Source: Candidatus Heimdallarchaeum aukensis (GTDB lineage Archaea > Asgardarchaeota > Heimdallarchaeia > Heimdallarchaeales > Heimdallarchaeaceae). Taken from it: 64,000 nucleotides of DNA. The position numbers and the translations under genes are program-made. Numbering within the stretch: the first letter of the stretch is position 1; the number at the start of each line of letters is the position of its first letter. Below are positions 2,688 through 60,971 of this stretch, one piece after another. Below the pieces are notes generated by a model. That model did not search any database. It was not told the DNA's origin and saw nothing but the letters and a program-made list of their open reading frames with translations. Location of the stretch: the NCBI GenBank assembly GCA_021513695.1, contig CP084166.1:896001-960000 (forward strand), written 5' to 3'.

Positions 2688-2739
2688 AAGTATTTAGCAA
2701 AAAAGTTTTTTTATATATTTATTGATATTGTTAACTCAA

Positions 2740-3610
2740 CAGATACAAGTTACACTCACGGAGAGATAAAGAGTCAAGAAGACATTCATAAATCTTTTAT
2801 TTTACCAAGGGTAAAGAGACTATGCCTTTAAGGGGACAGGATGTTGTAATAATCACAAAAACGTTGAAGGACAGTGTTACTTACACTAAGTGAGATCTAT
2901 ACGGTTCATCTCTTGGACAATAACTCCAAGGAGATGTTCAACTCTTCAATAAGTTTCAAGGTGATGGATCTGTGAGCTGATGCAGCCGATAACATGGGTT
3001 TGACACCGTTTATCACCATTAGAAGAAGGTACTCGTTTCTCTTTGTATTGTGTGAAAGAGTACTCCATCGTTGGTTAGAATCTGTTGAGGAAGAGCATAG
3101 TTTTGCATAGCTTGATCTAAAAATTGGGACATATCTAAAGTTTTAACTGTGTGAGAATAGAATTTTGTTGCTACATATATCGAACCGTAGGTGATTACTA
3201 ATTACACTCACGAAGTAGAGGTGTTGGCCTTATTCTTCTACCCGAAGGGCGCTCTAATAGATATTCGTCAAAAGTCGTTAGGTTTAGTTTTCTCGAATCT
3301 TTTTGTTCTCTTGTAAAATTAGCTGTTTTTCTCTATTTCTTTTCACTCTTTTTTTATAGTACTTTATTTATTATAAATGCCCCTCCTGTCTTAAGAATAA
3401 GCAATCTTGACTATATTAACTTTATATTTGCTCCTACCTATGATTGTATGTCTTCTTTCTATAACTTTCTTCTTTATTCACTTATTGATGATTTTTCTAC
3501 TTACTATATATTCTCTTGCTATTTAAGCTACTCTCACCCTTACAAAACTTCTTTAACTACTCTTTTCTAAGTTTTCTAGTTTACGTTTAGGTTTCATGTT
3601 TAATTAGTCA
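2740..3610 (-). pseudogene. Heavily decayed IS481-family (integrase-core DDE) transposase remnant
   Basis: The minus strand of this ORF-free, GC-richer segment translates in pieces to MKPKRKLENLEKSS*, IAREYIVSRKIINK, ATKFYSHTVKTLDMSQFLDQAMQNYALPQQILTNDGVLF. These align to MNKPERNLEKLRK, IAHKYMVSRKFVYKWL and GAKFHPFAPRKEQIISLLEEAIKEYGYPESILTDNGALF of the 32336-33046 transposase ORFs. Multiple stops and frameshifts. Confidence 0.5.
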
Positions 3611-3740
3611 CTTGCTCTTTGTAACCCTTTCTTTTACACCATTATCAAGGCTGGTTTAGTAAACAAGGGGTTTCAATTTAAAACATACTATTTAAAAATC
3701 AAATCTAAATTATTTTAAATGCTTTACAATAGTTGTATTT

Positions 3741-4790: not shown

Positions 4791-5529
4791 AGGCTTCTAA
4801 AAACTCTAAGATAATAAATAGTGCTGAGTATAGTGTCGTATGTTCAATTTATAAAGCATAGACTCAGAAAAATAGATGAACACCCACAATTACTTAAACC
4901 TTTATTTCAACCTAGATTCCTTGATACCCCTACTAACAAACAGGTCGAGAAGGAAGATTAAAACAGTGAGAACGGGCTGGATAGTAGCCTTAGCGCTGAT
5001 ATGTGCGTCTTTTTCTACGAGATAAGAACAGTATACAGAGCGGTTAAACCTTGTGAATAAGAAAATACAAAGTATAACACAACATACATTCCGCAAAAAA
5101 CATCCATCTTCAACGTTTGCACAGAGATAAAAAACTCCAAATAGTCCACACAATCACGTTAATAGTAAGAATGCTTTGCTCTTCTCCCGAAACAGTAGAA
5201 GAGGACAGGACAGGATTCAAGGTAAAAGGGGGTTGATTTAGAGTATTGCTAATGGAGTCACGCTTTACATAAAAACAAAGTCATTTTGGAAAGTCCACAA
5301 GATTATAGATTCCCCGATATTCATCCTCTCGGTTGCCCTCTCTCATTTCTACCGTTATAACCCCACACGAACAAGAGCATTTTTCAGAACCTAGAGAAAA
5401 AGACTTCTATGTAGAATTAGAAGATTTCATGCAGATAAAGCCCATCATAACAACAAACTGGGAGGGGGTTTCTCATCCAAGAGAGAATCAAATTTATTAT
5501 CGAACTAAAACGTAAACGTCGATCATGAC

Positions 5530-6400
5530 CTAATTATATAAATCACCTTTTTTTCCTTTGGGGATTGCTAATAAATAACCTTGTATCGTATCTCTAATGT
5601 CTGTGAAATCTCTAAATGGATTAGGATTACCTATAATTATTTCCTTATTTTCGCTTTTAAGAATCTTTGCAATCTGATTAAAAATTACTAAAGTTACAAA
5701 CATAATTTCTCTGTTTGGTCCAGTATTATTATATCCTCTTGTAACAACAATAGGCAATCCATACATACTATGATATTTAAGACTAAATTGTTCAGTAGCT
5801 ACCTTACTAGCTTCATATGGAGACTGTGGTCTAAGCGAATTGTTTTCATTAATAGGTATTTCGCCTAGAGATGGTAATCCATATTCTACACTACTCTCTG
5901 CAATCTGAATATCAATATCTAAATCTGAATTTCTTATTATTTCTAAAAGATTTACAGTACTTTCAATATTTGTACGTACAGCTTCAATAGGCCCCCAAAA
6001 TGAGAAAAGAACAAGACTGTGCTGGTAAGTGAAAGATATAACTTGGTTGGACTTCTTTGATAGTTATTTCTAATGATGAATAATCAATAAGATTAGCTTC
6101 CTTAAGTATAGTTTTATTAAGAAATTTATCAATTTTTGGATTTATTGGATTAGATTGTCTTCTTACAATACTATAAATTTCAACTTCTTGTTCCACAGAT
6201 AGTATTTTTTCTACTAAAGAGCTACCTACAAATCCTAATGTGCCAGTAATCAGAACCTTTTCTTGATGAAAACATGATTTGTCATACAGATCTCTTTTTT
6301 CTTTAGAAAATTTATTTTTATATTCATTAATATTGTCTGGATATATTAAGAATTTGCTTGTTTCTCATATATTTCTCAGTAAATTTTATCTTCAAAGAGC
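5530..6400 (-). pseudogene. Disrupted paralog of the NAD-dependent NDP-sugar 4,6-dehydratase/epimerase at 16601-17704 (one frameshift plus C-terminal truncation)
   Basis: Minus-strand translation gives KVLITGTLGFVGSSLVEKI...IVRRQSNPINP...EANLIDYSSLEITIKEVQPSYIFHLPAQS, then after a frameshift near 6000 ...SPYEASKVATEQFSLKYHSMYGLPIVVTRGYNNTGPNRE...IIGNPNPFRDFTDIRDTIQGYLLAIPKGKKGDLYN*. This is collinear with the intact protein but stops about 85 aa early. Confidence 0.7.
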
Positions 6401-6688
6401 ATAAATAAACTAACGCTTTCTTAGTTTTTAAATTTAATAGCAAGTATTTTAATTTAAACTCATTATTTTTTCAATTTTTTTTTAAAAAAATTTGAAGAAT
6501 AAAATGTAAGAATGAACAAACTTAAAATTAATAATTAAATTCTGCTTCATTAAAATGCATTATTTACTATTTAAATTGTAACTAAATACATAAATACATA
6601 TATACACATATTATTGAAAATAATAAGATAACTTTAACAAACAAATTTATTACAAAAAATAAGAAAAACTTCACATTGGGGGAAATTT

Positions 6689-7387
6689 ATGACAGAAGGA
6701 AAATACAATAATCTAGTTATATTAATTCCAACGCTAAATGAGGAAGATTCTATTGGTTATTTAGTGAACTCATGTAAAAAATTGACAGATAATGTAATTG
6801 TTGTTGATGGGTTATCAATTGATGATACAGTGGTAATCTCTAAGAAAGAAGGGGCAGAAGTGATTTATTGCAAGAAAAAGGGAAAAGGTAATGCTATTAT
6901 AGACGGTTTAAAATACGTATTGAAGAAACCAAATATTGAATATATCGCATATTTGGATGGAGATAGTACATATGACCCTTATGACATAAAAATTCTGTTA
7001 GACAAGATGTTAAATGAAAAAAAACTTGATGTAATAATTGGTAACAGATTACCAAAAAGAGAAAAAGGTTCTATAAAATTTATAAATATAATTGGCAATT
7101 ATTTATTTTCTTTTTTAATTAGTCTAATAAGTAGGGTAAAAATAAGTGATTCACAATCAGGTCTTCGTTTATTATCTAAAAAAGCAACTATGATATATTC
7201 AGATTGTCTAGAGTCTTCTGGTTTTGATATTGAAACTGAAATGATCATTAAAGGGTCGAGAAAAGGTATTAAATTTGGTGAAGTTCCTGTTAGCTATAGG
7301 TGTCGTGAAGGAAATTCTAAACTTAATCCTTTTAGAGATGGATTTAAGATTTTAAAAACGATTATAAAATATAGTTTTAAAAGATAG
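6689..7387 (+). CDS. Family 2 glycosyltransferase (dolichyl-phosphate hexosyltransferase-like)
   Basis: 232 aa; N-terminal LVILIPTLNEEDSIG...VIVVDGLSIDDT and DXD-type YLDGDSTYDP motifs typical of GT2 / DPM1-like enzymes. Confidence 0.7.
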   Translation: MTEGKYNNLVILIPTLNEEDSIGYLVNSCKKLTDNVIVVDGLSIDDTVVISKKEGAEVIYCKKKGKGNAIIDGLKYVLKKPNIEYIAYLDGDSTYDPYDIKILLDKMLNEKKLDVIIGNRLPKREKGSIKFINIIGNYLFSFLISLISRVKISDSQSGLRLLSKKATMIYSDCLESSGFDIETEMIIKGSRKGIKFGEVPVSYRCREGNSKLNPFRDGFKILKTIIKYSFKR

Positions 7388-7579
7388 AATTTATATTCAT
7401 CTTACACTAAACTATAGTAATCAGATTTCTTTATATAAAACTATTTTTAATCCTTCATTCTATAACATTATAAAATTCTCTCCACGTTGATGTTTTAAAT
7501 TTATAAATGATATTAAAAAACTCTTATGGTGCACTTCCAAGGTGTTACAAATACAGACATAGATTGTACTTGAAATAAT

Positions 7580-8309
7580 AGAGAATAAGACGCTTATGAT
7601 GATGGAAGAGAAGACGGTCACGCAACGAGATGAATACAAGTTTGATGAAAACAAAAATGTTTTCTACGGCAGATTTACAGGACACACAGAAGTGTTTTTA
7701 TTTACACAACCAGTGATAAGACTGTTAAAGACGTATTGAACGGTCTTGGAGATAACCTGTCTCATGGGTGGATTCGTGAAAGAAACGATAAAAATGAGTT
7801 AGCAAAAAAATACAAACATATTGATCCAAGATTTCTTTTTGTAAAAAAAAGATATAATTTAAGACCAACTGAAATACAAGGAGCATTTGGAATTCAACAA
7901 CTCAAGAAACTTGAAATATTCTTACGAACTAGAGAAGAAAATGCAAAATTTTGGATAGATAATTTGAACAAATATAGAAGCCTTATTCACATTCCAAAGA
8001 CTGAAACAAATATAAGACATGCATGGTTTGGATTTCCAATAGTTATTTATGAAAAAGCTGGATTTAAACATGATGATTTCATTAAAATATCTTGAAAACA
8101 ATAATATTGAAACTCGTCCAATTATGGCAGGAGATATAATTGAACACCCCGCTATGCACTATTATAACTGGAAACAAGTAAGAACACTAGAAAACTCTTC
8201 AAAGATAATAAAAAATGTTTTCTTCGTTGGAAATCATAGTAGCATTAAACAAAAAGAAAGAGAATACATTATGGATGTAATGAAATCATTTTTGGAAAAA
8301 AACACCTAA
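7580..8309 (+). pseudogene. C-terminal fragment of a DegT/DnrJ/EryC1 aminotransferase paralog (frameshifted, 5' part lost)
   Basis: ORFs 7736-8095 and 8049-8309 read HGWIRERNDKNELAKKY...YNLRPTEIQGAFGIQQLKKLEIFLRTREENAKFW...HAWFGFP and NNIETRPIMAGDIIEHPA in two frames. Both are collinear with the C-terminal third of the intact aminotransferase at 17730-18998. Weak similarity extends upstream to about 7580. Confidence 0.65.
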
Positions 8310-8344
8310 CTTTTTTTTAAATATTCATTAAAATCTTTTCTTTT

Positions 8345-9350
8345 AAAGCATGTCCAAAAATTAATTTTTATTAATGTGGGGGTTTATGTCGGAAGTATGA
8401 GTTTCTTTCAGATCATAGACCCCCACAAAGCAAGAGAATTCATAATCATTAATGAACCTTTCCTTAAGAAACTGGTGAAAGAGGAACCGAGAGAAAGTAA
8501 GAGAGGGAGAAAAAGAATAGCAGAAAGGTGGGTGATACTGGCTTTAGCGATCATTGCGAGAATAGAAGGAATTGCTTGGAGGAAGTTAGAGGAAAAGTTG
8601 TCTTTATGCGATTTTTTGATAGAAGAGGGGTGGATGAAGAAGATTCCTTCCAAATCTACTTTTCATGCAGTGTGGAGAGCGACAGAAAGTAAGTTGCTGG
8701 AGCGGTGGATAATAGATTTAGGTAGGGAAATAGTAAGGAAAAAAGGGTTGAAAGCTATGTCGGTGGATAGTTCAGGTTTTAAAATTCGTCAAGCTTCTGT
8801 TTGGCGTTTTCTCAAGTGGGCAAGAGGAGGACTAAAGAAAACCTCCAAACTTTTCTGGAAGATACACCTTATAGTTGGTTTACCCTCTCGAGCTATAGTC
8901 TCTCTTGCTCATTCTGCTAGTAACACTCACGATAGTAAAGTCTTCGGTTTACTATGGCAGAAACTTCCTTCTGCACTCTTGAGACCTTTCTTGAGATTCT
9001 ATGGAGACTGCGCTTACTGGACAGAAAATATCGTGGGACTTCTTAGCCAACATTCCTTTTTTCCTGTTATTCCTCCAAAAAGTAATGCTCGTTATCCCTC
9101 TCCTCCTCCTCTTGGACCAATAGTTCAAGCTCATCGTCTCTACCCTGGTCTCTATCGTCATAATCACCACCCCGAGTATCGTAGTAGTATTGAACATGTC
9201 TTTGGTCTCCTCAAACTCTCTCTTCCCCCGATTCTTGATCGCTTACCCTCCACCATCCTCTCTACCTTGTACAGTTCTCTTCTCTGTTACAACTACCTTT
9301 TACTCCTTCGGACTGTATAGTTGGTGAAAAAGAATTTTTGGACATGCTTT
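8345..9350 (+). mobile_element. IS element copy 1 (IS4/IS5-superfamily-like), intact, about 1006 bp, terminal inverted repeats AAAGCATGTCCAAAAATT
   Basis: Perfect 18-bp terminal inverted repeats at 8345-8362 and 9333-9350 enclose a single transposase ORF. A second, almost identical copy lies at 15464-16470. Confidence 0.8.
8376..9320 (+). CDS. DDE transposase (IS4/IS5-like)
   Basis: 314 aa; candidate catalytic residues in DSSGF, GDCAYW and YRSSIEHVFGLLK (R-x3-E-x6-K tail characteristic of IS4/IS5 transposases). Confidence 0.7.
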   Translation: MGVYVGSMSFFQIIDPHKAREFIIINEPFLKKLVKEEPRESKRGRKRIAERWVILALAIIARIEGIAWRKLEEKLSLCDFLIEEGWMKKIPSKSTFHAVWRATESKLLERWIIDLGREIVRKKGLKAMSVDSSGFKIRQASVWRFLKWARGGLKKTSKLFWKIHLIVGLPSRAIVSLAHSASNTHDSKVFGLLWQKLPSALLRPFLRFYGDCAYWTENIVGLLSQHSFFPVIPPKSNARYPSPPPLGPIVQAHRLYPGLYRHNHHPEYRSSIEHVFGLLKLSLPPILDRLPSTILSTLYSSLLCYNYLLLLRTV

Positions 9351-9397
9351 TTTAATAGAACATTAAATATTTATATCTATATATTATGTAACTATCA

Positions 9398-10543
9398 ATG
9401 AAAATAGCTATAATTAATCAATTTACCACACCAGAAGCTGGAGGGCACGAAATAAATTTAGCCAAACTATTACATAAAAAAGGACATGAACCTGTAATAA
9501 TAACTTCTGAATATAAGAATCCTAACCTAACCAATTATAAACTTATTAAGGCAGATGTGAAGAAGGATAAAGAACTCTGTTCTTTTAAAATTATAAGACT
9601 AAAAACTATATTTGCCTATTCAGAATTCCCAATTGTGACAGGAATGGATAAAATAATAGCTGAACTTAAACCAGACATTATTAATATTCATGAATTTTTT
9701 CAATACACTAGCTATAAAGGATACAAGTTAGCGAAAAAAAACAAAATACCTATTGTATTAACTCAACACTGTTATTACTTTCCACCCAGTTTTTTGAATA
9801 GATTAGGTATGAAAATTACAACTAAACTTTGGGGAAAAAAAATAATCAAGAATAGTGATGGACTTATAGCTATAGCTGAAAGCTCTAGTAAATTTCTAAA
9901 GGAAGTATCAAAAAATCCAAGATTGAAAGTAAACATAATACCAACGCCATTAGAATTGGATCAATTTCTTGAAATTATACCAGATTTTACTAAAAAATCA
10001 GAAAGTGATATTTTTAGAATATTATATGTTGGAAGAGTAGATGAGAGAAAAGGGATAAAATATTTGTTAGATGCTATGTCAATAGTAACAAAAAGATTCT
10101 ATAAACAAAAAATTGTTTTAGATATTGTTGGAAGAGGAGCAGATTTAAAGAAGTTTAAAAGATATGCAAGAGACAGAAATATTTGTGCAAAATTTCATGG
10201 ATTTGTTGAACATCAAAACATTTCAAAATTTTATAAAAAAGCTAATGTTTTTGTTTTACCCACAATTACAAAAGAACCATTCGGCAACGTAGCAGTTGAA
10301 GCTTTAGCGTCTGGGATCCCAGTTATTGCAAGCAAATTAGGAGGACTAGTAAATATTGTTCAAGAAGGTGCAGGATTTTTAGTTCAACCAAAAAATGCAG
10401 AAGAAATAGCTAATGCAATTACAAAGTTTTTAGATAATCCACTCTTATTAAAAAATTACAGTAAGAATGCAAAAGATCTTGGGTTCAGATTTGCAAATGA
10501 GCCTATAAATTCAATTATAGAGTTATTTCAGAATCTTATTTAA
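9398..10543 (+). CDS. Family 4 (GT-B) glycosyltransferase
   Basis: 381 aa; classic GT4 signature EPFGNVAVEALASGIPVIASKLGGLVNIV. Confidence 0.8.
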   Translation: MKIAIINQFTTPEAGGHEINLAKLLHKKGHEPVIITSEYKNPNLTNYKLIKADVKKDKELCSFKIIRLKTIFAYSEFPIVTGMDKIIAELKPDIINIHEFFQYTSYKGYKLAKKNKIPIVLTQHCYYFPPSFLNRLGMKITTKLWGKKIIKNSDGLIAIAESSSKFLKEVSKNPRLKVNIIPTPLELDQFLEIIPDFTKKSESDIFRILYVGRVDERKGIKYLLDAMSIVTKRFYKQKIVLDIVGRGADLKKFKRYARDRNICAKFHGFVEHQNISKFYKKANVFVLPTITKEPFGNVAVEALASGIPVIASKLGGLVNIVQEGAGFLVQPKNAEEIANAITKFLDNPLLLKNYSKNAKDLGFRFANEPINSIIELFQNLI

Positions 10544-10585
10544 ACATGTTTCTGAACTAAATATTGTTTAAGTAATCACAAAGAG

Positions 10586-11030
10586 ATGGATATAAAAATG
10601 GACATTAATAAATTCAAAAATCAAAACATCTTGATAATTAGTGAAAATGGTTTTATTGGTTCTCACCTTTTTCTAAAGCTTAGACATTTATCTAAAAATA
10701 TTATTAGAACAGTTTATTCACATAATTCAGAGAAAAATCAATTGTACAAATTTTACTATATCCATGTATTATTTGTTCAGCTGATGATTTAGAAGATGAA
10801 TATGCAATTGATGGGATTTAATAGATGTGTTTCATCTATAGGTAAATATTTAGTTTTTCCATAAACCAGACCAGATGATGAAAATACAAATTTTGAATCC
10901 TCTTGATATTTTCTAATGTTTTCCATTATATTTAAAGTTCCAAAAGTATTGACTTGATAACAAAGCTCTGGCTTTTTTATTGATTCATAAACATCAATTA
11001 AACTTGCTAGGTAATATATGATATTGAAAT
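10586..11030. pseudogene. Scrambled remnants of an NAD-dependent epimerase/dehydratase gene: N-terminal fragment on the + strand, internal fragment on the - strand
   Basis: Plus-strand ORF 10586-10792 has the Rossmann motif ILIISENGFIGSHL. The reverse complement of about 10800-11030 translates to ...CYQVNTFGTLNIMENIRKYQEDSKFVFSSSGLVYGKTKYLPIDETHLLNP, typical of the SDR epimerase core. The fragments are in opposite orientation. Confidence 0.5.
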
Positions 11031-11317
11031 TTTAAAATTATTACAATAATATCCTACAAACGATTTGGTTATACTATTAAGATATATAAGTGAAGTAGAT
11101 AAAATAAATAAAAACTACCTCACTTTTAAATCTTTATAAGTTTAGTTCTTTATAAATTTTGGTTAATCTTACTACATTTTTCTCATTATAATACTTTTTT
11201 TTATTATTTTTTTATTTATCATGAGACATTCATGAAATGTAGAGACTAGGTCTAACCTACTGTAACTCAGATCTCTTTTTTTCTTCCTCTCTTATTACAA
11301 TTTTCCCCCTTCACTAG

Positions 11318-12081
11318 GGTAGTGTCTAGTTTTTATACCACCTCCTAGGTAAAAAGGAACTAAGGGGAGGATGTCCCAAGCTCTGATGAGGACGAACGAA
11401 ATTATAATGGAGCATAAAGAGAGTAAGAAAACCAGAAAGATGAGTAGAGCCATAGACGGCACGGATAGGACAAGTGCAGTGGAGAATAGAATGAAACCAA
11501 CGATAACTCTTAAGAGTAGCATTAAAACGTTCAATATAGGAGCGTAAACCACCTTTGATAACGGAGATTTTGATACCTAGACGAAGTAAGACAGGATACC
11601 ATACCCCTGCATCTGTAACGACAATACGGGGCTTAAAACCCCAACATTTGAGCCAATAACGGAAAGTTAGTAAACATTCAAGATTACTCCGTCCTTTAGT
11701 AATACTAAAACCCAGTAAAGTCTTGTTGTAAGGATCTAACGCGAACCACAGATATATTGAGCCTTGAGAGGTCCTAATCTCTGTTTCATCTACTACTATA
11801 ATCTCTGGTATTCCCCCTCTCTCTGCTACAACTCTATGTAAACTTTCCCTAAAGAGCCTGAACTTCTTTACCCAATACCATAATGTTTGATGCGTTAAAC
11901 CATTCTTCCATGCTACTGTCCTCAACCCATTCTTTGAACCAATATATTCATAAATCGCTTTTATTATTATTTTTTTGGGGACTCTGCATCTCTTAAAAAG
12001 AGCAGATAGTTTTTGTGTTTTCATATCTTACTATTAGAGTCCCCACAAATATTTTTGTCGGAAGAAAACTAGACACTACCC
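11318..12081 (-). mobile_element. Intact IS6-family insertion sequence, 764 bp, 17-bp terminal inverted repeats GGGTAGTGTCTAGTTTT, flanked by an 8-bp target site duplication TTCACTAG
   Basis: Perfect IRs at 11318-11334 and 12065-12081. Identical 8-bp direct repeats lie immediately outside at 11310-11317 and 12082-12089; IS6 elements generate 8-bp TSDs. Confidence 0.8.
11326..12024 (-). CDS. IS6-family DDE transposase
   Basis: 232 aa; VVDETEI, IVVTDAG and ERFNATLKS with C-terminal HQSLGH motif, as in the IS26/IS240 transposase family. Confidence 0.75.
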   Translation of the reverse strand: MKTQKLSALFKRCRVPKKIIIKAIYEYIGSKNGLRTVAWKNGLTHQTLWYWVKKFRLFRESLHRVVAERGGIPEIIVVDETEIRTSQGSIYLWFALDPYNKTLLGFSITKGRSNLECLLTFRYWLKCWGFKPRIVVTDAGVWYPVLLRLGIKISVIKGGLRSYIERFNATLKSYRWFHSILHCTCPIRAVYGSTHLSGFLTLFMLHYNFVRPHQSLGHPPLSSFLPRRWYKN

Positions 12082-12467
12082 TTCACTAGCCTCCTAACCT
12101 TCTTATATTAGAGAAATAATTTATTAAAAGAAACATTTTTCTAGTACCCAAAAGTATAACCCATGTCTATCGAGTGAACAACTAGGGAAATAGTAATCAA
12201 AAATTCTTCATATATTGAATAATCTGATATTGGATATTTGAAATTAAGTCCAATTTCCGCTTACAAATTCCTCTTTTGAAGTTTTGTATATACTTCTTTA
12301 TACATGCATATTATAAAATGAAAACATAAGCTTAATTTATATTCTTCTTTTTGACATATTATTTTAATCATTATAGAGAAAAATAGAGTTTCAATTAGAA
12401 AAAATAAATTTTTATTATAGAAAAAAAATATTAACTTGTGAGTTTTATATTGCGTGAGATGATAACA

Positions 12468-13394
12468 ATGAATTCAGATTTATCACTAAAAGACAAGAAA
12501 ATTTTATTAACAGGTGGTAGTGGTTTTTTTGGAAGTTTTATTCTTGATGAATTAAATAAAGAGGAAGTTTCTGAAATTATTGTACCAAGGTCATCAAGGC
12601 ATGATTTACGTAATAGAGATGATGTACAAGATGTAATGGACGGAGTTGACATCGTAATACATGCTGCAGGAATTGTATCTGGTATTGGGGGAATTCAAGA
12701 AATACCTGCAAAAATTTTTTATGATAACGCAATAATGGGCTTGCATATAATGGAAGAAGCAAAAAATTTTGGAATTAAGAAATTAGTAAATATAGGTACT
12801 GCTTGTTCATATCCCAAATTTGCACCTATACCCTTAAAAGAGAAAGATTTATGGGCTGGATATCCTGAAGAAACCAAAGCTTCTTATGGTATCGCTAAAC
12901 GTTTACTAGTAGAAGGTGCAAGAGTTTATCATCATCAATATAATTTAAATGTTATCCCACTAATAATATTTAATCTATATGGACCTCGTGACAATTTTGA
13001 TTTAGCTACCTCTCATGTAATACCTGCTTTAATTCGAAAATGCTTAGAATCAAACAAGTTAGTGGTTTGGGGAGATGGAACTCCAACAAGAAGTTTTTTG
13101 TATGTCAAAGACGCAGCAAAAGCTGTGATATTGGCAACAAAAAAATATAATAAACATTACCCTGTAAATATAGGTACATCTGAAGAAACTAGTATTAAAA
13201 ATCTTGTAGAATTAATAGCTGAATTAACTGGTTTTAATGGTGAAATAATCTATGATAAAACAAAACCTAATGGACAACCTAGGCGATGTGCAGATGTTTC
13301 GTTAGCAAAAAAAGAATTTAATTTTGAAGCTAAATATTCATTAAAACAAGGATTAAAGGAAACAATTGATTGGTATAAAAAAAATTTTAACTGA
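12468..13394 (+). CDS. NAD-dependent epimerase/dehydratase (extended SDR; GDP-L-fucose synthase-like)
   Basis: GxxGxxG Rossmann motif ILLTGGSGFFGSFI and catalytic YGIAKRL (YxxxK); about 310 aa. Confidence 0.75.
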   Translation: MNSDLSLKDKKILLTGGSGFFGSFILDELNKEEVSEIIVPRSSRHDLRNRDDVQDVMDGVDIVIHAAGIVSGIGGIQEIPAKIFYDNAIMGLHIMEEAKNFGIKKLVNIGTACSYPKFAPIPLKEKDLWAGYPEETKASYGIAKRLLVEGARVYHHQYNLNVIPLIIFNLYGPRDNFDLATSHVIPALIRKCLESNKLVVWGDGTPTRSFLYVKDAAKAVILATKKYNKHYPVNIGTSEETSIKNLVELIAELTGFNGEIIYDKTKPNGQPRRCADVSLAKKEFNFEAKYSLKQGLKETIDWYKKNFN

Positions 13395-14202
13395 AAATTT
13401 TGACTTTTTTGTTTAATTTTAATTAATTACTGTTATATCACGATATTCATAAATAAAAGTTATTGATAACAATGTAGAAATAATTAATTATTAGAAATCT
13501 CAATTTTAATTCTTCAGTGATCCTTCTGGAGGAAGTTTTATGTTTTCAGAAAAAAAATATAAATCCATCCCTACCATAAATGATGCGTAAAATCCACGAT
13601 CATAAATCTTTCGCCATACATATGAATTATTTTTGTTTGGTGGATAATTAATAATACAGGATTTATGATTTTAGGGAGAATTAGTGGTAGCAGCATATTT
13701 ATCAATCTTTAAAATTGGCTAACATATACATTAGCATTCTGCATTGTTAGAATATAGCAAAGATAAGAACCAAGAAAAACTGAACCACCAGTTACAAAAA
13801 TACTTTGATTCTCAATTTTTATTTCTCTCTTTTTTAAATTATTGTATTTTAATCTTCATTGATGAATATAAAAATTAATTTGGTTATATATAAAAATCTA
13901 TATCAATTTTAATATGGCTTTTAGAAAATAAAATTTATTTTAGTTTTAAAACAATGAAGAGGATTATTTAAAAGAAAATTGTTAAAAGAAAAAATTAATA
14001 TTCATAAGTTCACATAAAATAGCCACAAACTATTAAGATAATGGAATAAATAGGAAACAGATATTCATATGACTATAAAAGTATATGATTTTTGTCTTTT
14101 AGAATAGAAAATACAAATTTTTTTTGTAGATGTAATTCTAAATATCCCTTTACTTTTAATAAAAACCTAATCTTTATAATAAGATTAGTAATTATTCTTC
14201 AT

Positions 14203-15333
14203 ATGGATAAAGTTATAATAATTGGTCCCTCTTCAAAATTCTTAAGTGGTATCACATATTATACAATTAATATAGCAAATTTGTTAAGAAAAGATAAAAA
14301 AATTTTTATTTTTGAAATAGATCAATTATTACCAAAATTTTTATTTCCTGGGTCAGGAAGAGTGGGTAAAATACAAACAATCTCTACTTATAAAGAAGAA
14401 GTCTCAGTTAGCCATATTAAAATGAAATATTATTCAATACCTTCAATAATTAAAGCAGCAAAGTCTATAAACATGTTAAAACCAAAGGTAGTAATCTTTC
14501 AATGGTGGTCTTGTACAGTAGCACACATTTATTATTTTTTAATAAAACTTATTTCAAAAGAGATTAAAATCATTTTTGAGTTTCATGAAATTTTAGATAC
14601 AAGCGAAGCTTCATTTTTTCTTCTAAAAATTTATACGAGTTTGATGATGAAATTGTTGTTAAAGGAAGTTACAATATTTATAACTCATTCAGTTTCCGAT
14701 AAGAAAAAAGTAATAAAAACTTATAAAATAGATGAAAGCAAAATTCAAGTTATACCTCATCTTACAACAACTACCTATTCTTTAATAAGTAAAAATATTG
14801 CTAGAAAAAAATTTAATTTACCAATGAACTCAATCGTCTTGGTATTTTTTGGATTAATTAGAAAATATAAAGGAATCAACATTTTAGTTAAAGCTTTTGA
14901 ACAATTAAAAATAAACAGCTTAAAAAAGCCATTACTTATTATTGCTGGAGAGATATGGGATCCATTAGACAAGAAAACTAACAAGATAATAAATGAAAAT
15001 AGAAATATTATTCTTATTAACAAATACTTATCAGATGAGGAGGTAGAATATTTAATCTCTGCTGCAGATTGTTTTGTATTACCATATACTAGAGCATCTC
15101 AGAGTGGAGTATTAAGTATAATACATAATACAGGCAAACCTGTAATATTATCTGACATAAAAGAATTCGTGGAAGCTTCAAAACATTATAGTAATTCTAT
15201 TTTCTTTAAGAGAAATGATATTATAGATTTAAAATCAAAAATAGAAAAATTCACTAAAAATCATAATGATTTTAATATTAAGCCAGTTAACAACAATGAA
15301 AGAGTTAAAGAATTATATCTTTCTGTAATGTAA
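14203..15333 (+). CDS. Glycosyltransferase (GT4-like, GT-B fold)
   Basis: Start taken at the internal Met (MDKVIIIGPSS). C-terminal FVLPYTRASQSGVLSIIHNTGKPVILSDIKEF resembles the GT4 donor-binding segment. Confidence 0.55.
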   Translation: MDKVIIIGPSSKFLSGITYYTINIANLLRKDKKIFIFEIDQLLPKFLFPGSGRVGKIQTISTYKEEVSVSHIKMKYYSIPSIIKAAKSINMLKPKVVIFQWWSCTVAHIYYFLIKLISKEIKIIFEFHEILDTSEASFFLLKIYTSLMMKLLLKEVTIFITHSVSDKKKVIKTYKIDESKIQVIPHLTTTTYSLISKNIARKKFNLPMNSIVLVFFGLIRKYKGINILVKAFEQLKINSLKKPLLIIAGEIWDPLDKKTNKIINENRNIILINKYLSDEEVEYLISAADCFVLPYTRASQSGVLSIIHNTGKPVILSDIKEFVEASKHYSNSIFFKRNDIIDLKSKIEKFTKNHNDFNIKPVNNNERVKELYLSVM

Positions 15334-15463
15334 TTATATATTTCTAAAAGAGGAGATAAAATCATTGTTACGCTTACAGACAAGCTATTATGAATCGAAA
15401 TTCTCAAATGAAAGTAATATTATATGTTTTTGTCTATCTTCAATTAAATATTAAATAATTAAT

Positions 15464-16470
15464 AAAGCATGTCCAAAAATTAATTTTTATTAATGTGGGG
15501 GTTTATGTCGGAAGTATGAGTTTCTTTCAGATCATAGACCCCCACAAAGCAAGAGAATTCATAATCATTAATGAACCTTTCCTTAAGAAACTGGTGAAAG
15601 AGGAACCGAGAGAAAGTAAGAGAGGGAGAAAAAGAATAGCAGAAAGGTGGGTGATACTGGCTTTAGCGATCATTGCGAGAATAGAAGGAATTGCTTGGAG
15701 GAAGTTAGAGGAAAAGTTGTCTTTATGCGATTTTTTGATAGAAGAGGGGTGGATGAAGAAGATTCCTTCCAAATCTACTTTTCATGCAGTGTGGAGAGCG
15801 ACAGAAAGTAAGTTGCTGGAGCGGTGGATAATAGATTTAGGTAGGGAAAATAGTAAGGAAAAAAGGGTTGAAAGCTATGTCGGTGGATAGTTCAGGTTTT
15901 AAAATTCGTCAAGCTTCTGTTTGGCGTTTTCTCAAGTGGGCAAGAGGAGGACTAAAGAAAACCTCCAAACTTTTCTGGAAGATACACCTTATAGTTGGTT
16001 TACCCTCTCGAGCTATAGTCTCTCTTGCTCATTCTGCTAGTAACACTCACGATAGTAAAGTCTTCGGTTTACTATGGCAGAAACTTCCTTCTGCACTCTT
16101 GAGACCTTTCTTGAGATTCTATGGAGACTGCGCTTACTGGACAGAAAATATCGTGGGACTTCTTAGCCAACATTCCTTTTTTCCTGTTATTCCTCCAAAA
16201 AGTAATGCTCGTTATCCCTCTCCTCCTCCTCTTGGACCAATAGTTCAAGCTCATCGTCTCTACCCTGGTCTCTATCGTCATAATCACCACCCCGAGTATC
16301 GTAGTAGTATTGAACATGTCTTTGGTCTCCTCAAACTCTCTCTTCCCCCGATTCTTGATCGCTTACCCTCCACCATCCTCTCTACCTTGTACAGTTCTCT
16401 TCTCTGTTACAACTACCTTTTACTCCTTCGGACTGTATAGTTGGTGAAAAAGAATTTTTGGACATGCTTT
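15464..16470 (+). mobile_element. IS element copy 2 (IS4/IS5-like), same IRs as copy 1, transposase inactivated by a 1-bp insertion
   Basis: Inverted repeats AAAGCATGTCCAAAAATT at both ends. Sequence is identical to copy 1 except an extra A in the A-run at about 15847 (GGGAAAATAG vs GGGAAATAG). Confidence 0.8.
15495..16440 (+). pseudogene. Frameshifted transposase of IS copy 2
   Basis: The transposase reading frame is split into 131-aa and 190-aa ORFs whose translations are identical to the N- and C-terminal parts of the 8376-9320 protein. Confidence 0.75.
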
Positions 16471-16600
16471 AATAATTAAATACTAAATAATAATTTAATA
16501 ATTAAATATTAAATAATAAAAAAATTTATTTTGGAATACATATTCTATTTTAATTTCTAAAAGAAAAAAATATAAAAATATTTGAATCTTTACATTAAGT

Positions 16601-17704
16601 ATGTTATCAGAAAAAGAAATTTTCCGTGAAATAAATGCTAAACATAAAAAAATTCTTATAGATCCTGAAAATTTAGATTCTTATTTGTCAAATTTTGATA
16701 AAGAAAAAAAAGATTTATTTGATCCAAAAAAACTAGAAGGTTCTAGGGTTTTAATTACCGGTATTACCGGATTTGTAGGAAGTCATTTAGCAGAGAAACT
16801 TGTAGGATTAGACTCTGATATTGATGTTTATGGTGTTGTGCGAAGACAATCTGTACCTAACTTCCCAAATATTAAACATATTGTTAATGACATAAATCTA
16901 ATAGAAGCAAATTTGATAGATTATTCTTCTTTAGAACATACTATTAATAATGTAGAACCAGACTATATTTTCCATCTAGCAGCTCAATCTTTTGTACCAA
17001 CTTCTTTTATTGCACCAATTGAGTCTGTAACAATAAACATTCAAGGAACAGTAAATTTACTTGAAATTCTTCGTAAAAGTGAAATTAATTTCAGTGGAAT
17101 TCAAGTTGCCTGCAGTAGTGAGCAATATGGACTTGTCTATCCTGATGAAGTTCCAATAAATGAGAACAATCCATTTAGACCACAATCACCTTATGCTGTT
17201 AGTAAAATAGCAACTGAAAAATATAGTTTAACTTATCATAGAGCTTATGGTTTACCAATTGTAATTACAAGAGGTTTTAATCATACAGGTCCAAGAAGAG
17301 GAATAAAGTTTGTTACTTCAGTAATCGCAAGTCAAATCGCAAATATTATTAATGGCAAAGGAAATAAGATAATAATCGGAAACCCCAAACCAATAAGAGA
17401 TTTTACATTTATTGAAGATATGATACAAGGATATATTTTATCAATAATAAAAGGAAAAAGAGGTGAGGTTTACAATCTTGGTCATGGATTTGGAATTAGT
17501 ATAGAGAATTTGATTAAACTTACTGCATCTATTTACGATGTTAGCTATGAAATTGAAATTGATAAATCAAGATATCGACCAGCAGAGGTAAACATTCTTG
17601 TATGTGATTATTCAAAAGCTAAAAAAGAACTAGGTTATTATCCACAATATTCGTTAGTTGAGACTATCAGAAAAATTGTTGAATTTTACTTAGAAAAAAC
17701 GTAA
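16601..17704 (+). CDS. NDP-sugar 4,6-dehydratase / NAD-dependent epimerase (extended SDR)
   Basis: 367 aa; VLITGITGFVGSHL Rossmann motif, SPYAVSKIATEKY catalytic YxxxK; adjacent to a DegT-family aminotransferase (dehydratase + aminotransferase = amino-deoxy-sugar pathway). Confidence 0.8.
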   Translation: MLSEKEIFREINAKHKKILIDPENLDSYLSNFDKEKKDLFDPKKLEGSRVLITGITGFVGSHLAEKLVGLDSDIDVYGVVRRQSVPNFPNIKHIVNDINLIEANLIDYSSLEHTINNVEPDYIFHLAAQSFVPTSFIAPIESVTINIQGTVNLLEILRKSEINFSGIQVACSSEQYGLVYPDEVPINENNPFRPQSPYAVSKIATEKYSLTYHRAYGLPIVITRGFNHTGPRRGIKFVTSVIASQIANIINGKGNKIIIGNPKPIRDFTFIEDMIQGYILSIIKGKRGEVYNLGHGFGISIENLIKLTASIYDVSYEIEIDKSRYRPAEVNILVCDYSKAKKELGYYPQYSLVETIRKIVEFYLEKT

Positions 17705-17729
17705 TCTTAAATTATAGGGTGATTTTATA

Positions 17730-18998
17730 ATGAAGTTAGAAACAGCATTGAATGAAATTAAGAATATTGTAGATATGTATTTCTCTGAAAATGATATTTA
17801 TAAAGATGAAACGAAGATAAGGCTTATTGCTCCTTCATATGGAACTAAAGAAGTGATAGAAGTAATAGAATCACTTCTTTCCACTAATGTAACAATGGGT
17901 AAAAAAGTTAGTGAATTTGAAAATATGTTTTCAACATACTTAAATGTGAAATATGGTACTATGGTAAATTCTGGTTCAAGTGCAAATTTAATAGCTCTTC
18001 AAATTTTATCAAATCCTGCTATTAGAAATAATATTAAACCTAAAGACGAAATTATTACTCCAGCTTTAACTTGGTCTACTACTGTTTTTCCAATGTTTGA
18101 TATTCATGCAGTTCCTGTATTTGTTGATGTGGATCCTAAAACTTTGACTATTGATGTTAACCAACTAAAAAGCGCTTTATCTAAGAAAACTAAGGCAATA
18201 ATGCCAGTTCATCTTTTAGGTCATCCATGTGATATGGACTACATAACAGAATTTGCTGAAGATAATTCATTGTACATAATTGAAGATTGTTGTGAAGCTC
18301 ATGGAGCAATGTGGAAAGGTAAGAAAGTTGGTAGTTTTGGTGATATCGGTACTTTTAGTTTCTTTTTTTCTCATCATATATCTACGATAGAGGGTGGGAT
18401 TGTTGTTACTAATAACGAAGAATATAATCTTTTATCAAAATCTTTGAGGGCCCATGGTTGGATTCGAGAGAGAAAAGATAGGTCGATTTTAGCTAAAAAA
18501 TATCCTTTTATCAGTGAAAAATATCTTTTTATAAATAAAGGATATAATTTAAGACCTACAGAACTTCAAGGCGCATTTGGAATACATCAAATTAAGAAAT
18601 TAGATGATTTCATTAAAATTAGAGAAGAAAATGCAAAATATTGGTTATCTGAACTTGATGAAATAAAGCATCTTATACAGTTACCAACCATTAAGAAAGA
18701 TGTTAAGCATTCATGGTTTGGTTTTCCCTTAATAGTTAAAGATGAAGCTCCATTTAAAAAAGATGACTTAATTCAATATCTTGAATTAAATAACATTGAA
18801 ACTCGTCCAATTATGTCAGGTAACATTACAGAACATCCAGCTTTAAAATATTTCAAATGGCGTAAGATCGGTAATTTGGAAGTATCCTCGAAAGTTATGA
18901 AGAATGGCTTTTTCTTTGGTAATCATCTAGGTATTAAAAACTACGAAAGAGAATTTATTGCGGAGAAAATTAGAGAGTTCATAGATTATAAAACTTAG
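17730..18998 (+). CDS. DegT/DnrJ/EryC1/StrS-family PLP-dependent sugar aminotransferase
   Basis: 422 aa; conserved segments SGSSANLIAL, IEDCCEAHGA, FSFFFSHHISTIEGG, YNLRPTELQGAFG typical of the family. Confidence 0.85.
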   Translation: MKLETALNEIKNIVDMYFSENDIYKDETKIRLIAPSYGTKEVIEVIESLLSTNVTMGKKVSEFENMFSTYLNVKYGTMVNSGSSANLIALQILSNPAIRNNIKPKDEIITPALTWSTTVFPMFDIHAVPVFVDVDPKTLTIDVNQLKSALSKKTKAIMPVHLLGHPCDMDYITEFAEDNSLYIIEDCCEAHGAMWKGKKVGSFGDIGTFSFFFSHHISTIEGGIVVTNNEEYNLLSKSLRAHGWIRERKDRSILAKKYPFISEKYLFINKGYNLRPTELQGAFGIHQIKKLDDFIKIREENAKYWLSELDEIKHLIQLPTIKKDVKHSWFGFPLIVKDEAPFKKDDLIQYLELNNIETRPIMSGNITEHPALKYFKWRKIGNLEVSSKVMKNGFFFGNHLGIKNYEREFIAEKIREFIDYKT

Positions 18999-19081: not shown

Positions 19082-19903
19082 TTATCTTTCTATAATTATT
19101 ATGTATCTTTTTCTTGTTCCTGCTTTGATTTCTATATAACCACACTCTTTTTTTTCACAAAACAACCTACGTAATTTCTCCAATTGGTTTTTGTTCATTA
19201 ATTGTAAAGTAATCAAATTAATTCTAACGTCATTATTATTCATTGCTTCATTCAGCAATTTAATAGCAAAATCTAACTCTCTCTCTCCAGCAATAAGTTC
19301 AGATTGTACTCCTTTCCACCCCCTTTGTTTTTCAAGTTTCGTCAAATCTGCAGGATAGATGGGTGGGTAACACATTAAAGCTGTGTATTTTCCTTCAGGT
19401 ACAATTTCTTTTATTATTTGCCCTTCTGATTTAATCAAAGTTATTAAGCTGCTTAATTTATTTTTCACTATATTTCTTTGTGCTAGTTGATAAGATATTT
19501 CATTTATTTCTGTAGCTAAAACTTTTCTCTTGTATTTTTTAGCGAGTAGCATTGCTATTGCTGCACTGGCTCCTGTCCCAATCTCGATTATAGGGTAGGA
19601 AAAGTTTGCAATTTTACTTGTGAGCAGTTCATTTATTGCTTCGACGTAAGCCATTCTTAGACTATAAGAAGGAATTAAGTGCCCTTTTGGTAGTTCAATA
19701 TCTAAATCTGCTAATTCTTTAAACAAGCACTTATTAAGTTCTGATAGAGTTTCAGGATCACCCAAATCAAATTTAGGAGGATTTTTGCTTATTAAGTATT
19801 TCTCCAATTTAGGGTATTTAGCAACTAATTTTTCGAATTTCATCCCTAAATGCTTAGCTTCTATAATTTTTAGTGGTTCTTTAATCATGCTTAGTCCTAT
19901 CAT
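19082..19903 (-). CDS. SAM-dependent methyltransferase with (N/C)PPY-type motif (RlmF/METTL16- or HemK-like N-methyltransferase)
   Basis: Motif I EIGTGASAAIAMLL, acidic motif II ATEINE, and CYPPIY resembling the (D/N/S)PP(Y/F) motif of amino-group methyltransferases. Confidence 0.5.
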   Translation of the reverse strand: MIGLSMIKEPLKIIEAKHLGMKFEKLVAKYPKLEKYLISKNPPKFDLGDPETLSELNKCLFKELADLDIELPKGHLIPSYSLRMAYVEAINELLTSKIANFSYPIIEIGTGASAAIAMLLAKKYKRKVLATEINEISYQLAQRNIVKNKLSSLITLIKSEGQIIKEIVPEGKYTALMCYPPIYPADLTKLEKQRGWKGVQSELIAGERELDFAIKLLNEAMNNNDVRINLITLQLMNKNQLEKLRRLFCEKKECGYIEIKAGTRKRYIIIIER

Positions 19904-27126: not shown

Positions 27127-27466
27127 ATAAAAAAGTTCCTTTCTTTTATATCAAGGGATAGGTTCTTTTTTGTCTCTCGTGGAGTGAAGAAAGAAAAAGT
27201 TCTTTTCTTCTTTATGATTCCCATGATTCGTGTATGAGGTCTGTCTCAACCCCTCCCATTCATTGTATTATTGGTTGAGTTCGCAAGAGATCAAACTTTC
27301 TCCTTGCTTGTTTTTTCTCTTGAAAGACTGAGTGCGAAAAACTTACGTAAAAAAGTAAATCATAATCTCTTAATTTGTTAATAACCACACTTATCATTCA
27401 TTCAAGTTGTCTAATAAATGCCTATAGAAATACTCTTTAAGTGATGTTGTTAGATTTTATTTACTT

Positions 27467-42338: not shown

Positions 42339-42341
42339 CTC

Positions 42342-48300: not shown

Positions 48301-48420
48301 TATCTTCTTTTTCCTCATAGACCTTAATTTTCACACTACTTAGTTCAGCTTAAACATTTATTCCTGCTATACGCAATAGACTTGAAAACGTATTTTCACA
48401 CTACTTAGTTCAGCTTAAAC
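42342..48420 (-). CRISPR. CRISPR array 1: about 92 copies of the 29-bp repeat ATTTTCACACTACTTAGTTCAGCTTAAAC (+ strand) with 35-40 bp spacers; leader at the 48420 end, so it is transcribed on the - strand
   Basis: Perfect periodic repeat of about 66 bp seen directly; the transcribed orientation is GTTTAAGCTGAACTAAGTAGTGTGAAAAT, identical to array 2. Confidence 0.95.
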
Positions 48421-60857: not shown

Positions 60858-60971
60858 GTAAATCGTAAGAATCAGGTCGACATTTATAAAGATGATACAT
60901 TATTGGAGGTCGACCAGGAAGGTGAGTGACAAAAGGAAAGAAAAATATAACTAGAAAAGAAAATAAACTTC
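60858..60971 (+). promoter_or_regulatory. Leader of CRISPR array 2 with ATTTATAAAG TATA-like box and two GGTCGAC elements
   Basis: Sequence directly after cas2 is the reverse complement of the array 1 leader (about 90 percent identity over about 115 bp). Confidence 0.6.

Follow-up and report, generated by a model that had tools for sequence, protein, structure and literature searches.

When a locus carries intact genes side by side with broken genes of the same kind, are the broken ones spent copies of the intact ones or the remains of something older? In Candidatus Heimdallarchaeum aukensis, the surface-glycan locus raises this question. It lies in the 64-kb stretch of DNA analyzed here (the window, a term used throughout for the whole stretch). 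A preliminary description of the window had listed decayed genes of a dehydratase and a DegT-family aminotransferase together with further epimerase fragments and had explained them as paralogs of an intact pair at 16601-18998, produced by repeated duplication. We compared the window with the corresponding locus of the sister species, Ca. H. endolithica (L003, CP084167.1 992384-1013478, 21 kb). The relics were examined by tblastn, blastn, Pfam, NCBIfam and PDB comparisons, by neighbor-joining (NJ) trees built only from columns covered by the relics (194-278 columns, 200 bootstraps) and by Nei-Gojobori estimates of nonsynonymous and synonymous divergence (dN and dS). They proved to be vertically inherited orthologs of H. 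endolithica genes and not copies of the intact cassette, which is a separate, older-diverging lineage. In the following, module A denotes the genes that H. endolithica retains, namely, a short-chain dehydrogenase/reductase (SDR) gene (SDR_A), a ColD-like gene (ColD_A) and a gene for a 314-amino-acid (aa) SDR (Epim314), the relics of which we call psiSDR_A, psiColD_A and psiEpim; module B denotes the intact genes of the window (SDR_B, ColD_B and a Fcl/ColC-like gene).

Searching the window by tblastn with the proteins of the intact pair recovered both relics at significant levels, and the collinearity at the protein level that had been described before was borne out. The intact SDR aligned through residues 17-130 to 6355..6014 (frame -1, 53% identity) and through residues 129-292 to 6021..5533 (frame -2, 60% identity), with a joint E value of 4e-82, while the intact DegT-fold protein aligned through residues 241-349 to 7760-8086 and through residues 348-422 to 8082-8306 (53% identity, joint E value of 1.6e-56). 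The H. endolithica proteins gave 72-74% aa identity between SDR_A and psiSDR_A (E value of 1.6e-109) and 71-76% between residues 229-418 of ColD_A and positions 7730-8297 (E value of 1.3e-78). At the DNA level, psiSDR_A was 79% identical to L003 9951-10886 in inverted orientation. The top match of its reconstructed product was the intact H. endolithica gene (74% identity), and this product contained the Pfam domain GDP_Man_Dehyd (2.7e-50); the product of psiColD_A matched DegT_DnrJ_EryC1 (PF01041, 3.6e-18).

Overall, the relics shared 53-60% of amino acids and 67-70% of nucleotides with the intact pair in the window versus 72-76% and 79-81%, respectively, with H. endolithica, which speaks directly against an origin by repeated duplication. 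The H. endolithica SDR_A and ColD_A were themselves 64% (aa) and 69% (nt) identical to the intact pair, and the DNA blocks syntenic between the two species were 79-84% identical, compared with 69% for module B. In the NJ trees, psiSDR_A and psiColD_A each grouped with their H. endolithica counterpart with 100% bootstrap support, SDR_B grouped with protein P0002 (88%) and ColD_B with protein P0041 (95%); P0002 and P0041 are encoded on one and the same JGI metagenome contig (L084; JGI 3300033149, Ga0366834_1091108). The dS values of the relics relative to H. endolithica (0.75, 0.98 and 0.89-0.94) resembled those of intact orthologous neighbors, the glycosyltransferase (GT) genes GT2 (0.60), GT4_381 (0.87) and GT4_376 (0.73). 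The dS between module B and H. endolithica was 1.60-1.62, about twice this species-level divergence, and that between module B and L084 was 1.31-1.38. Synteny with GT2, GT4_381 and Epim314, the 100% bootstrap support and the neighbor-like dS values thus collectively identify the relics as orthologs. Their branches were approximately 3 to 4 times as long as the sister branches, and their dN/dS (0.21 and 0.15) barely exceeded that of the controls (0.10-0.18), so that inactivation is probably recent relative to the species split. As a rough estimate, it may span about the last tenth to fifth of the time since that split.

The relics are real pseudogenes. The start codon of psiSDR_A is kept (ATG at 6403), and it is followed by a nonsense mutation (CAA to TGA) at codon 9 (6378), a -1 frameshift at codon 15 (6358), a -2 frameshift at codon 130 (6014), an in-frame loss of 3 nt at codon 165 (5911) and, at codons 292-294, indels giving rise to a TAG at 5530-5532. 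Homology runs out at approximately 5510-5524, and about 70 C-terminal codons are gone. The gene had been characterized as a dehydratase pseudogene with one frameshift and a C-terminal truncation; the pseudogene and the truncation stand, and the count of lesions has to be raised to more than one frameshift plus the TGA. The relic psiColD_A lacks codons 1-228, has lost 3 nt at 7759 and carries a +1 frameshift at 8082, but its natural stop codon persists at 8307-8309. An independent Illumina-only assembly (Logan, run SRR15988954), whose contigs end at the IS copies (insertion sequences, IS), agreed with the window at every position (100% identity, 8372 bp), all lesions included. The pseudogenes are therefore not assembly errors.

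The fragments at 10586-11030 belong to another gene. Residues 1-51 of the H. endolithica Epim314 protein matched 10598-10750 on the plus strand (E value of 5e-17, 67% identity), and residues 68-141 matched 11031-10810 on the minus strand (E value of 3e-34, 81% identity); by blastn, the second piece was 83% identical to L003 14129-13850, and it retained a GDP_Man_Dehyd match of 46 bits (6.5e-12). Codons 52-67 and 162-314 are lost. Since both pieces match Epim314, one of them inverted, they are not copies of the dehydratase gene, and against the window's own SDR the fragments scored weakly (E value of 0.013). These "further epimerase fragments" are hence a genuine SDR-type relic, but two pieces of one gene and no additional copies. 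The Rossmann-fold fragment proposed near 13700-13800 (IFVTGGSVFLGSYL) is marginal and represents a possible SDR relic at best. A custom SDR hidden Markov model (HMM) scored it at 5.3 bits against a maximum of 3.1 among 200 shuffled sequences, and its matches among the open reading frames (ORFs) of the locus appear to be SDR N-terminal regions; tblastn (E value of 0.4-1), Pfam (0.18) and PDB (0.7) gave nothing significant. A further candidate scrap at 12309-12410 on the minus strand, which came from tblastn with all ORFs of the locus, scored -0.3 bits, inside the range of the shuffles, and was rejected.

Gene order and rearrangements around the relics

The H. endolithica locus reads GT2 (minus strand), GT4_376 (plus strand), IS remnants, SDR_A, ColD_A, GT4_381, Epim314, a TnpB fragment, a restriction-modification gene and a methyltransferase gene. 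Much of this order can still be traced in the window (Table 1). Positions 9349-10750 align without a break to L003 12402-13801, and the interval 5530-8309, previously described as decayed, also holds a fully intact GT2 gene between the two relics. All three enzyme genes of module A are broken, whereas the three glycosyltransferase genes are intact with dN/dS values of 0.10-0.18. The GT2 product (Pfam Glycos_transf_2, 2e-18; NCBIfam AglJ, 176 bits, under the cut-off) was 84% identical to that of H. endolithica (6701-7372, inverted; dN/dS 0.14), GT4_381 (Glycos_transf_1, 6.7e-40) was 83% identical (9398-10540; dN/dS 0.10) and GT4_376 was 77% identical in protein and 81% in DNA (14203-15324; dN/dS 0.18). 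Identity between the sister species within the locus (77-84% aa) is lower than the genome average, the two circular Heimdallarchaeum genomes sharing 88% average nucleotide identity and 90% average amino acid identity (AAI) (Wu et al. 2022, PMC8813620). That paper is silent on this locus, on IS-driven pseudogenes and on glycan genes.

Relative to the ColD_A-GT4_381-Epim block, GT2 and SDR_A are inverted as a unit. What is missing, the 3' end of SDR_A and the 5' end of ColD_A, corresponds precisely to the two sides of the ancestral SDR|ColD junction, which fits one inversion at this point plus a deletion of about 940 nt. Of these lost ends, tblastn at word size 2 and E values of up to 50 found no credible remnant in 7377-7760 or 4791-5530, and the spacer between GT2 and psiColD_A had no blastn match to L003. 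The left breakpoint of psiSDR_A, where this gene is truncated, abuts a GC-richer block of unexplained origin (4850-5524) that contains no ORF and no Rfam match, resembles none of the 88 loci compared nor any other part of the window and shows no excess folding (z-score of about 0); it includes a weak NDK-like peptide at 5333-5515 (Pfam E value of 0.0015). A second ancestral junction is also broken in H. aukensis. When an IS6-like element is removed from an old IS remnant, the joined segments 11227-11315 and 12083-12181 align to L003 9764-9948 (73% identity, E value of 4e-26), the sequence that directly abuts SDR_A in H. endolithica. At a minimum, the differences between the two genomes amount to one or more block transpositions, 2 inversions, at least 2 deletions, 3 IS insertions and 2 gene-block differences.

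Module B occupies a matching slot, with GT4_376 upstream of the cassette in both genomes and a methyltransferase gene or its relic on the right. In H. endolithica, this relic, which stems from the C-terminus, lies just downstream of the A block (L003 14955-14857; 76% identity, E value of 4e-12) and corresponds to residues 240-272 of the H. aukensis protein. An intact but more divergent methyltransferase gene (62%) was observed in the same species 3 kb away, past the TnpB fragment and the Eco57I-type restriction-modification gene. The presence of both a relic and a divergent intact copy indicates that the locus was remodelled in both species. A 37-nt match between 15426-15462 and the H. endolithica GT2-GT4 intergenic region was discarded as too weak and too AT-rich. 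No tRNA or Rfam feature was found across the whole 64-kb window.

Table 1. Features of the glycan locus of H. aukensis, in window coordinates
Feature	Position	Strand	Description
Orphan block	4850..5524		GC-richer, ~680 bp; GC 0.36-0.40 versus ~0.27 around; origin unexplained
psiSDR_A	5510..6403	-	GMD/RMD-family SDR pseudogene; ortholog of H. endolithica P0001; residues ~298-364 missing
GT2	6689..7387	+	Intact glycosyltransferase, AglJ/dolichyl-phosphate hexose transferase-like; between psiSDR_A and psiColD_A
Spacer	7388..7729		Inversion/deletion junction; expected ~940 nt (SDR 3' end and ColD-like 5' 228 codons) absent
psiColD_A	7730..8309	+	C-terminal 45% (residues 229-421) of a ColD/E1-like pyridoxamine phosphate (PMP)-dependent 3-dehydratase gene
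IS5-family copy 1	8344..9356	+	Intact 314-aa DDE transposase (8376-9320); between the psiColD_A stop and GT4_381
GT4_381	9398..10543	+	Intact GT4 glycosyltransferase, 381 aa; ortholog of the H. endolithica gene after ColD_A
psiEpim piece 1	10598..10750	+	Codons 1-51; ortholog of the H. endolithica 314-aa GalE/4,6-dehydratase-like SDR (Epim314)
psiEpim piece 2	10751..11031	-	Codons 68-161 of the Epim314 ortholog, inverted in place; +1 at 10809
Old IS remnant	11227..12181	+	Split by IS6-like insertion; homologous to sequence directly upstream of SDR_A in H. endolithica
IS6-like element	11316..12082	-	Intact, 767 bp; transposase 11326-12024
Fcl/ColC-like gene	12438..13394	+	Intact; GDP-L-fucose-synthase family; no counterpart in the H. 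endolithica locus
SDR-like scrap	13718..13828	-	Possible SDR N-terminus relic; no gene assignable
GT4_376 ortholog	14092..15333	+	Intact GT4 glycosyltransferase; the H. endolithica 376-aa GT4 precedes the SDR-ColD cassette
IS5-family copy 2	15458..16476	+	Upstream of the intact cassette (SDR_B); 99.3% identical to copy 1
SDR_B	16601..17704	+	Intact GMD/RMD-family SDR; PDB 2pk3 (RMD) 9e-59, 1n7g (GMD) 2e-45
ColD_B	17730..18998	+	Intact ColD/E1-like PMP-dependent 3-dehydratase, by sequence; PDB ColD 2gms 3e-80, E1 3bcx 5e-74
Methyltransf_10 gene	19082..19903	-	Native right-hand neighbor of the cassette slot; 62% aa to the H. endolithica gene

Module B and its predicted enzymes

The preliminary description had called the second gene of the intact pair a DegT aminotransferase, a name that does not hold. 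Judged by family, the protein is a ColD/E1-like PMP-dependent 3-dehydratase. The nearest solved structures are those of ColD (2gms) and E1 (3bcx), and the motif SFFFSHHIST of ColD_B, corresponding to SFYSHHIAT of ColD, puts a His in the place that the Schiff-base Lys occupies in aminotransferases. In the longer alignment of SFFFSHHISTIEGG to SFYSHHIATMEGG of ColD, this residue coincides with ColD H188; in the PDB chain 3b8x, which we take to be the H188 mutant of ColD, the first His of the pair is an Asn. The same His-for-Lys motif occurs in ColD_A of H. endolithica, and the corresponding region falls in the deleted part of psiColD_A. Among the NCBIfam models, RfbH (NF011936) scored best for ColD_A and ColD_B (366-373 bits, with 366 for ColD_B), under its cut-off of 423. 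A database protein identical to ColD_B (P0040) carries the precomputed Pfam assignment PF01041 (DegT_DnrJ_EryC1), and JGI names homologs CDP-6-deoxy-D-xylo-4-hexulose-3-dehydrase.

SDR_B belongs to the GMD/RMD family, scoring 178 bits with the curated Gmd model TIGR01472 (cut-off of 415). Its catalytic SSE and YxxxK motifs are common to the dehydratase and the reductase RMD, the latter being the top PDB match (2pk3), and its sequence FNHTGPRRG lies between the GMD and RMD versions of this motif. A comparison of the window (16601-16745) with P0001-P0007 and L004-L022 showed that the Asgard clade of this GMD/RMD-like SDR has a conserved N-terminal extension of about 48 residues (…LIDPxNLDxYLxxFxKEKKxLFD…); many bacterial relatives and the solved structures align to the SDR only from residue ~40-49. 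Relative to L084, the dN/dS of module B was 0.12-0.14 (0.12 for SDR_B). The Fcl/ColC-like gene is probably the third enzyme gene of module B. Its product scored 245 bits with GDPFucSynFcl (NF047922; cut-off of 500), by a wide margin its best-scoring family, and several sources name its homologs GDP-L-fucose synthase. No H. endolithica ortholog appeared among the top 120 hits. Genes for an SDR, a ColD-like protein and an Fcl-like protein cluster on three independent contigs (L085/L086, L087 and L088), being directly contiguous on L087 and accompanied on the other two by a GT2 gene beside the Fcl-like one.

Two characterized routes bear on the likely product. GDP-L-colitose is made by Gmd, ColD and ColC acting in sequence (Escherichia coli O55/O111 and Yersinia pseudotuberculosis), ColD being known from the structures 2gms and 3gr9, among others. 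Module B resembles this route in that ColD is the nearest solved relative of ColD_B, with the His at the H188 position, and in the recurring partnership with a GMD/RMD-family SDR and a protein of the GDP-fucose-synthase family, to which ColC belongs. It differs in that all three proteins of the window score under the NCBIfam cut-offs, with activity predicted from sequence, that the SDR carries the N-terminal extension and has the reductase RMD as its closest solved relative, and that H. endolithica, in module A, employs a GalE-like SDR where module B has an Fcl/ColC-like protein. The CDP-3,6-dideoxyhexose route uses E1 (RfbH/DdhC/AscC) and an E3 reductase and leads to ascarylose, abequose and tyvelose. 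In its favor are RfbH as the best NCBIfam model and the match to E1, but the RfbH score stays below the cut-off and the partner enzymes look GDP-type. The annotated region of 1-22 kb shows no AscD-type E3, no CDP-glucose 4,6-dehydratase and no glucose-1-phosphate cytidylyltransferase. The combination of SDR, ColD-like and Fcl-like proteins is thus likely to yield a GDP-linked 3,6-dideoxyhexose by a colitose-type route. The third enzyme of module A being GalE/4,6-dehydratase-like and not Fcl-like, the two modules may make different sugars.

Insertion sequences in the locus

Three intact IS copies lie among these genes. The first IS5-family copy has the terminal inverted repeats AGCATGTCCAAAAA, a Pfam DDE_Tnp_1 match and the flanking repeat CTTTTAA/TTTTTAA, and H. 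endolithica preserves the empty site (L003 12392|12402). The second differs from it by 6 mismatches and 1 gap and is flanked by a perfect 7-bp repeat, TTAATAA. Its transposase is split by a single indel into ORFs 15495-15890 and 15868-16440, so that this copy is probably non-autonomous. The IS6-like element has perfect 18-bp terminal inverted repeats and a target duplication of 8-9 bp, (C)TTCACTAG. In their DDE/rve transposases, terminal inverted repeats and target duplications of 7 bp and 8-9 bp, these elements resemble known IS5 and IS6 members; 7 bp is not the classical value for IS5. The NCBIfam scores (67 against a cut-off of 140 for IS5, and 49 bits against 125 for IS6) make the subgroup assignment loose. 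Because each intact copy has its own target duplication, the three are simple insertions, and they are probably late. No rearrangement breakpoint falls on any of them. That the rearrangements arose by recombination of one IS5 copy with the other was considered and rejected, as each copy retains its own matching flanking repeat. The earlier picture of the glycan locus is accordingly correct as to decay, remodelling and the presence of IS elements, but repeated duplication around these elements is not supported.

Just upstream of SDR_B, two copies of a 26-bp AT-rich tandem repeat, TTTAATAATTAAATAYTAAATAATAA, were noted at 16468-16519, and a similar motif is present at the opposite end of IS5 copy 2 (15443-15465). 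This copy appears to have inserted into an AT-rich repeat tract, possibly in a promoter region.

The same IS5 element occurs elsewhere. On L084, both ends of the contig (1-123 and 3993-4105) match the window IS5 sequences at 8346-8459 and 15453-15578 with 97-99% identity, and the 3.9-kb segment between them, which carries a 382-aa gene, an SDR gene and a ColD gene, has an inward-facing left end of the IS on either side. The SDR-ColD cassette of L084 is 75% identical in DNA to module B (dS of ~1.3). IS sequences this similar next to cassettes this divergent imply recent horizontal spread of the IS. A metagenome scan for H. aukensis-like strains or longer contexts of B-type cassettes gave nothing closer than 67% among the matches listed, and the loci L089-L091 contributed nothing further.

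Further mobile and repetitive sequences were encountered outside the locus. A short IS-ORF remnant lies at ~3194-3303 (minus strand) in a 1-kb gene-free gap (2688-3740). Mobile traces at 26656-27363 and 32336-32836 contain a TnpB/Cas12f-like fragment, 86% identical to L003 14996-15469, and helix-turn-helix-type IS ORFs sharing 79-87% identity with the remnant of an IS that precedes SDR_A in H. endolithica. Both Heimdallarchaeum genomes have been reported to carry transposases/integrases of 11 families, with as many as 27 copies per family (Wu et al. 2022, PMC8813620). An array of diverged tandem repeats (~67-70% identical) covers about 6 kb at 42340-48420, the same family recurs in inverted orientation at 60970-64000, and at 43-49 kb the GC skew takes strongly negative values. 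These arrays are probably genes of giant repetitive (surface?) proteins on opposite strands; intragenic tandem repeats have been described in these genomes (Wu et al. 2022, PMC8813620).

Decay of a glycan module and its proposed displacement

We put the probability at roughly 75% that module A is ancestral and dead in H. aukensis, that the divergent module B is intact and that A is decaying after displacement or a switch of sugar. The common ancestor of the two species would have carried SDR_A, ColD_A, a GT4 gene and Epim314, an arrangement still intact in H. endolithica. H. aukensis carries SDR_B, ColD_B and the Fcl/ColC-like gene as well, with the pair in the slot whose neighbors, GT4_376 on the left and the methyltransferase gene on the right, bound module A in H. 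endolithica. Once B supplied the activity, or the sugar made was switched, constraint on the three A enzyme genes would have been lost, fairly recently. Erosion, neutral in the simplest reading, would then have proceeded through the inversion of GT2 and SDR_A with the loss of about 940 nt, through a local inversion and truncation within Epim314 and through nonsense and frameshift mutations, while the three interleaved glycosyltransferase genes remain under purifying selection. Functional redundancy as the cause of the decay, like the biochemical product and the route by which B arrived, is inferred.

Several points weigh against this account. The redundancy of A and B is assumed, and their third enzymes differ (GalE-like versus Fcl-like). 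The role of SDR_B as dehydratase or reductase is not settled by motifs common to both. The dN/dS of the relics is only modestly above that of the controls, so the case for relaxation draws mainly on lesions and branch lengths, and the deeper nodes of the trees, built on 194-278 columns, are weak (41-71%). The search of the H. endolithica genome for relics of B or of the Fcl-like gene was not exhaustive. With two genomes in the genus, the order of events and their direction, gain or loss of B, are not fixable.

Module B may stem either from a horizontal gain, for which the IS-ended cassette of L084 suggests a composite-transposon-like context, or from ancient co-residence followed by loss in H. 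endolithica. The latter, in which the ancestor held A and B as out-paralogs, H. endolithica lost B with the Fcl-like gene completely and H. aukensis is now losing A, concerns only where B came from and leaves the conclusions on pseudogenes and orthology untouched; under it, B need not have entered H. aukensis by horizontal transfer. Module B and the Fcl-like gene stand at a mainstream distance (63-78% aa) from related archaeal SDR-ColD-Fcl modules, lineage A being the outlier (61-66%), B sits between native backbone genes with no obvious foreign flanks, and GC content is uniform. The 21-kb H. endolithica locus, however, holds no relic of B or Fcl, the genome-scan hits include no second SDR-ColD locus in that species, the top 120 hits include no Fcl-like protein of its own, and the IS ends on both sides of the cassette of L084 suggest that such cassettes occur in mobile contexts. 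We therefore regard dual ancestral carriage as a tenable but minority possibility. Still more tentative is the idea that the SDR-ColD-like cassette is a mobile composite transposon with active IS5 that moves among Heimdallarchaeia, and that H. aukensis is caught in the middle of a serotype-like switch of its surface or N-glycan (a 3,6-dideoxyhexose module), possibly under viral pressure. This idea is prompted by the contrast between IS copies that are 99% identical in two hosts and cassettes that share only 75% identity. The cassette of L084 has IS sequence at both ends, but L084 was assembled from short reads and merely stops within the repeat, and in the window only one IS5 copy adjoins module B, with its own 7-bp duplication and no bracketing.

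On the view of a recent duplication within the genome, repeated copying and inversion near the IS elements would have generated the relics from the 16601-18998 cassette and from further epimerase genes, with degradation to follow. This view would account for the shared gene pair, the protein collinearity, the common locus and the nearby IS elements. It is very improbable given the closer identity of the relics to H. endolithica, trees that part the two lineages with 88-100% support, a dS between B and A of about twice the species level, the derivation of the 10586-11030 pieces from Epim314 and the separate target duplications of both IS5 copies and the IS6-like element. The notion that faulty sequencing or assembly created the lesions, or that programmed frameshifting or split genes get around them, deserves even less credence. 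The genome was assembled from Nanopore and Illumina reads (PMC8813620), and Nanopore assemblies can carry indel errors; yet the Illumina-only assembly is identical throughout, and a nonsense mutation, the loss of 228 N-terminal ColD_A codons and about 70 C-terminal SDR_A codons and an inverted segment are neither of indel type nor open to bypass.

O-antigen, capsule and archaeal agl clusters are known to turn over by cassette replacement, IS insertion and the formation of pseudogenes, as in the bacterial rfb/wb* loci. The present locus is likewise a case of ordinary glycan-locus turnover and not of repeated gene duplication. It shares with rfb/wb*-type turnover the hypervariability of a surface-glycan locus, a divergent homologous set that replaces nucleotide-sugar genes, the relics left behind, interleaved transferase genes and several IS elements; it differs in its Asgard host, in the old and new modules lying side by side and in that no IS-mediated rearrangement is demonstrated. 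Nothing in it is mechanistically surprising, and its interest lies in the host, in the predicted dideoxyhexose chemistry and in a near-identical IS in another lineage.

Collectively, the results amend how this glycan locus is annotated and how its evolution is read, in a genus with only two circularized genomes. What looked like three scraps of ORFs is what remains of an ancestral pathway, and the supposed aminotransferase is, by its sequence, a deoxygenating ColD/E1-like enzyme. In the Asgard archaea closest to eukaryotes, surface-glycan loci would thus be remodelled by cassette displacement and decay, as are bacterial O-antigen loci. Because 3,6-dideoxyhexoses are known mainly from bacterial lipopolysaccharides, the prediction that these archaea make such a sugar, probably a colitose-like one, offers a concrete biochemical hypothesis.

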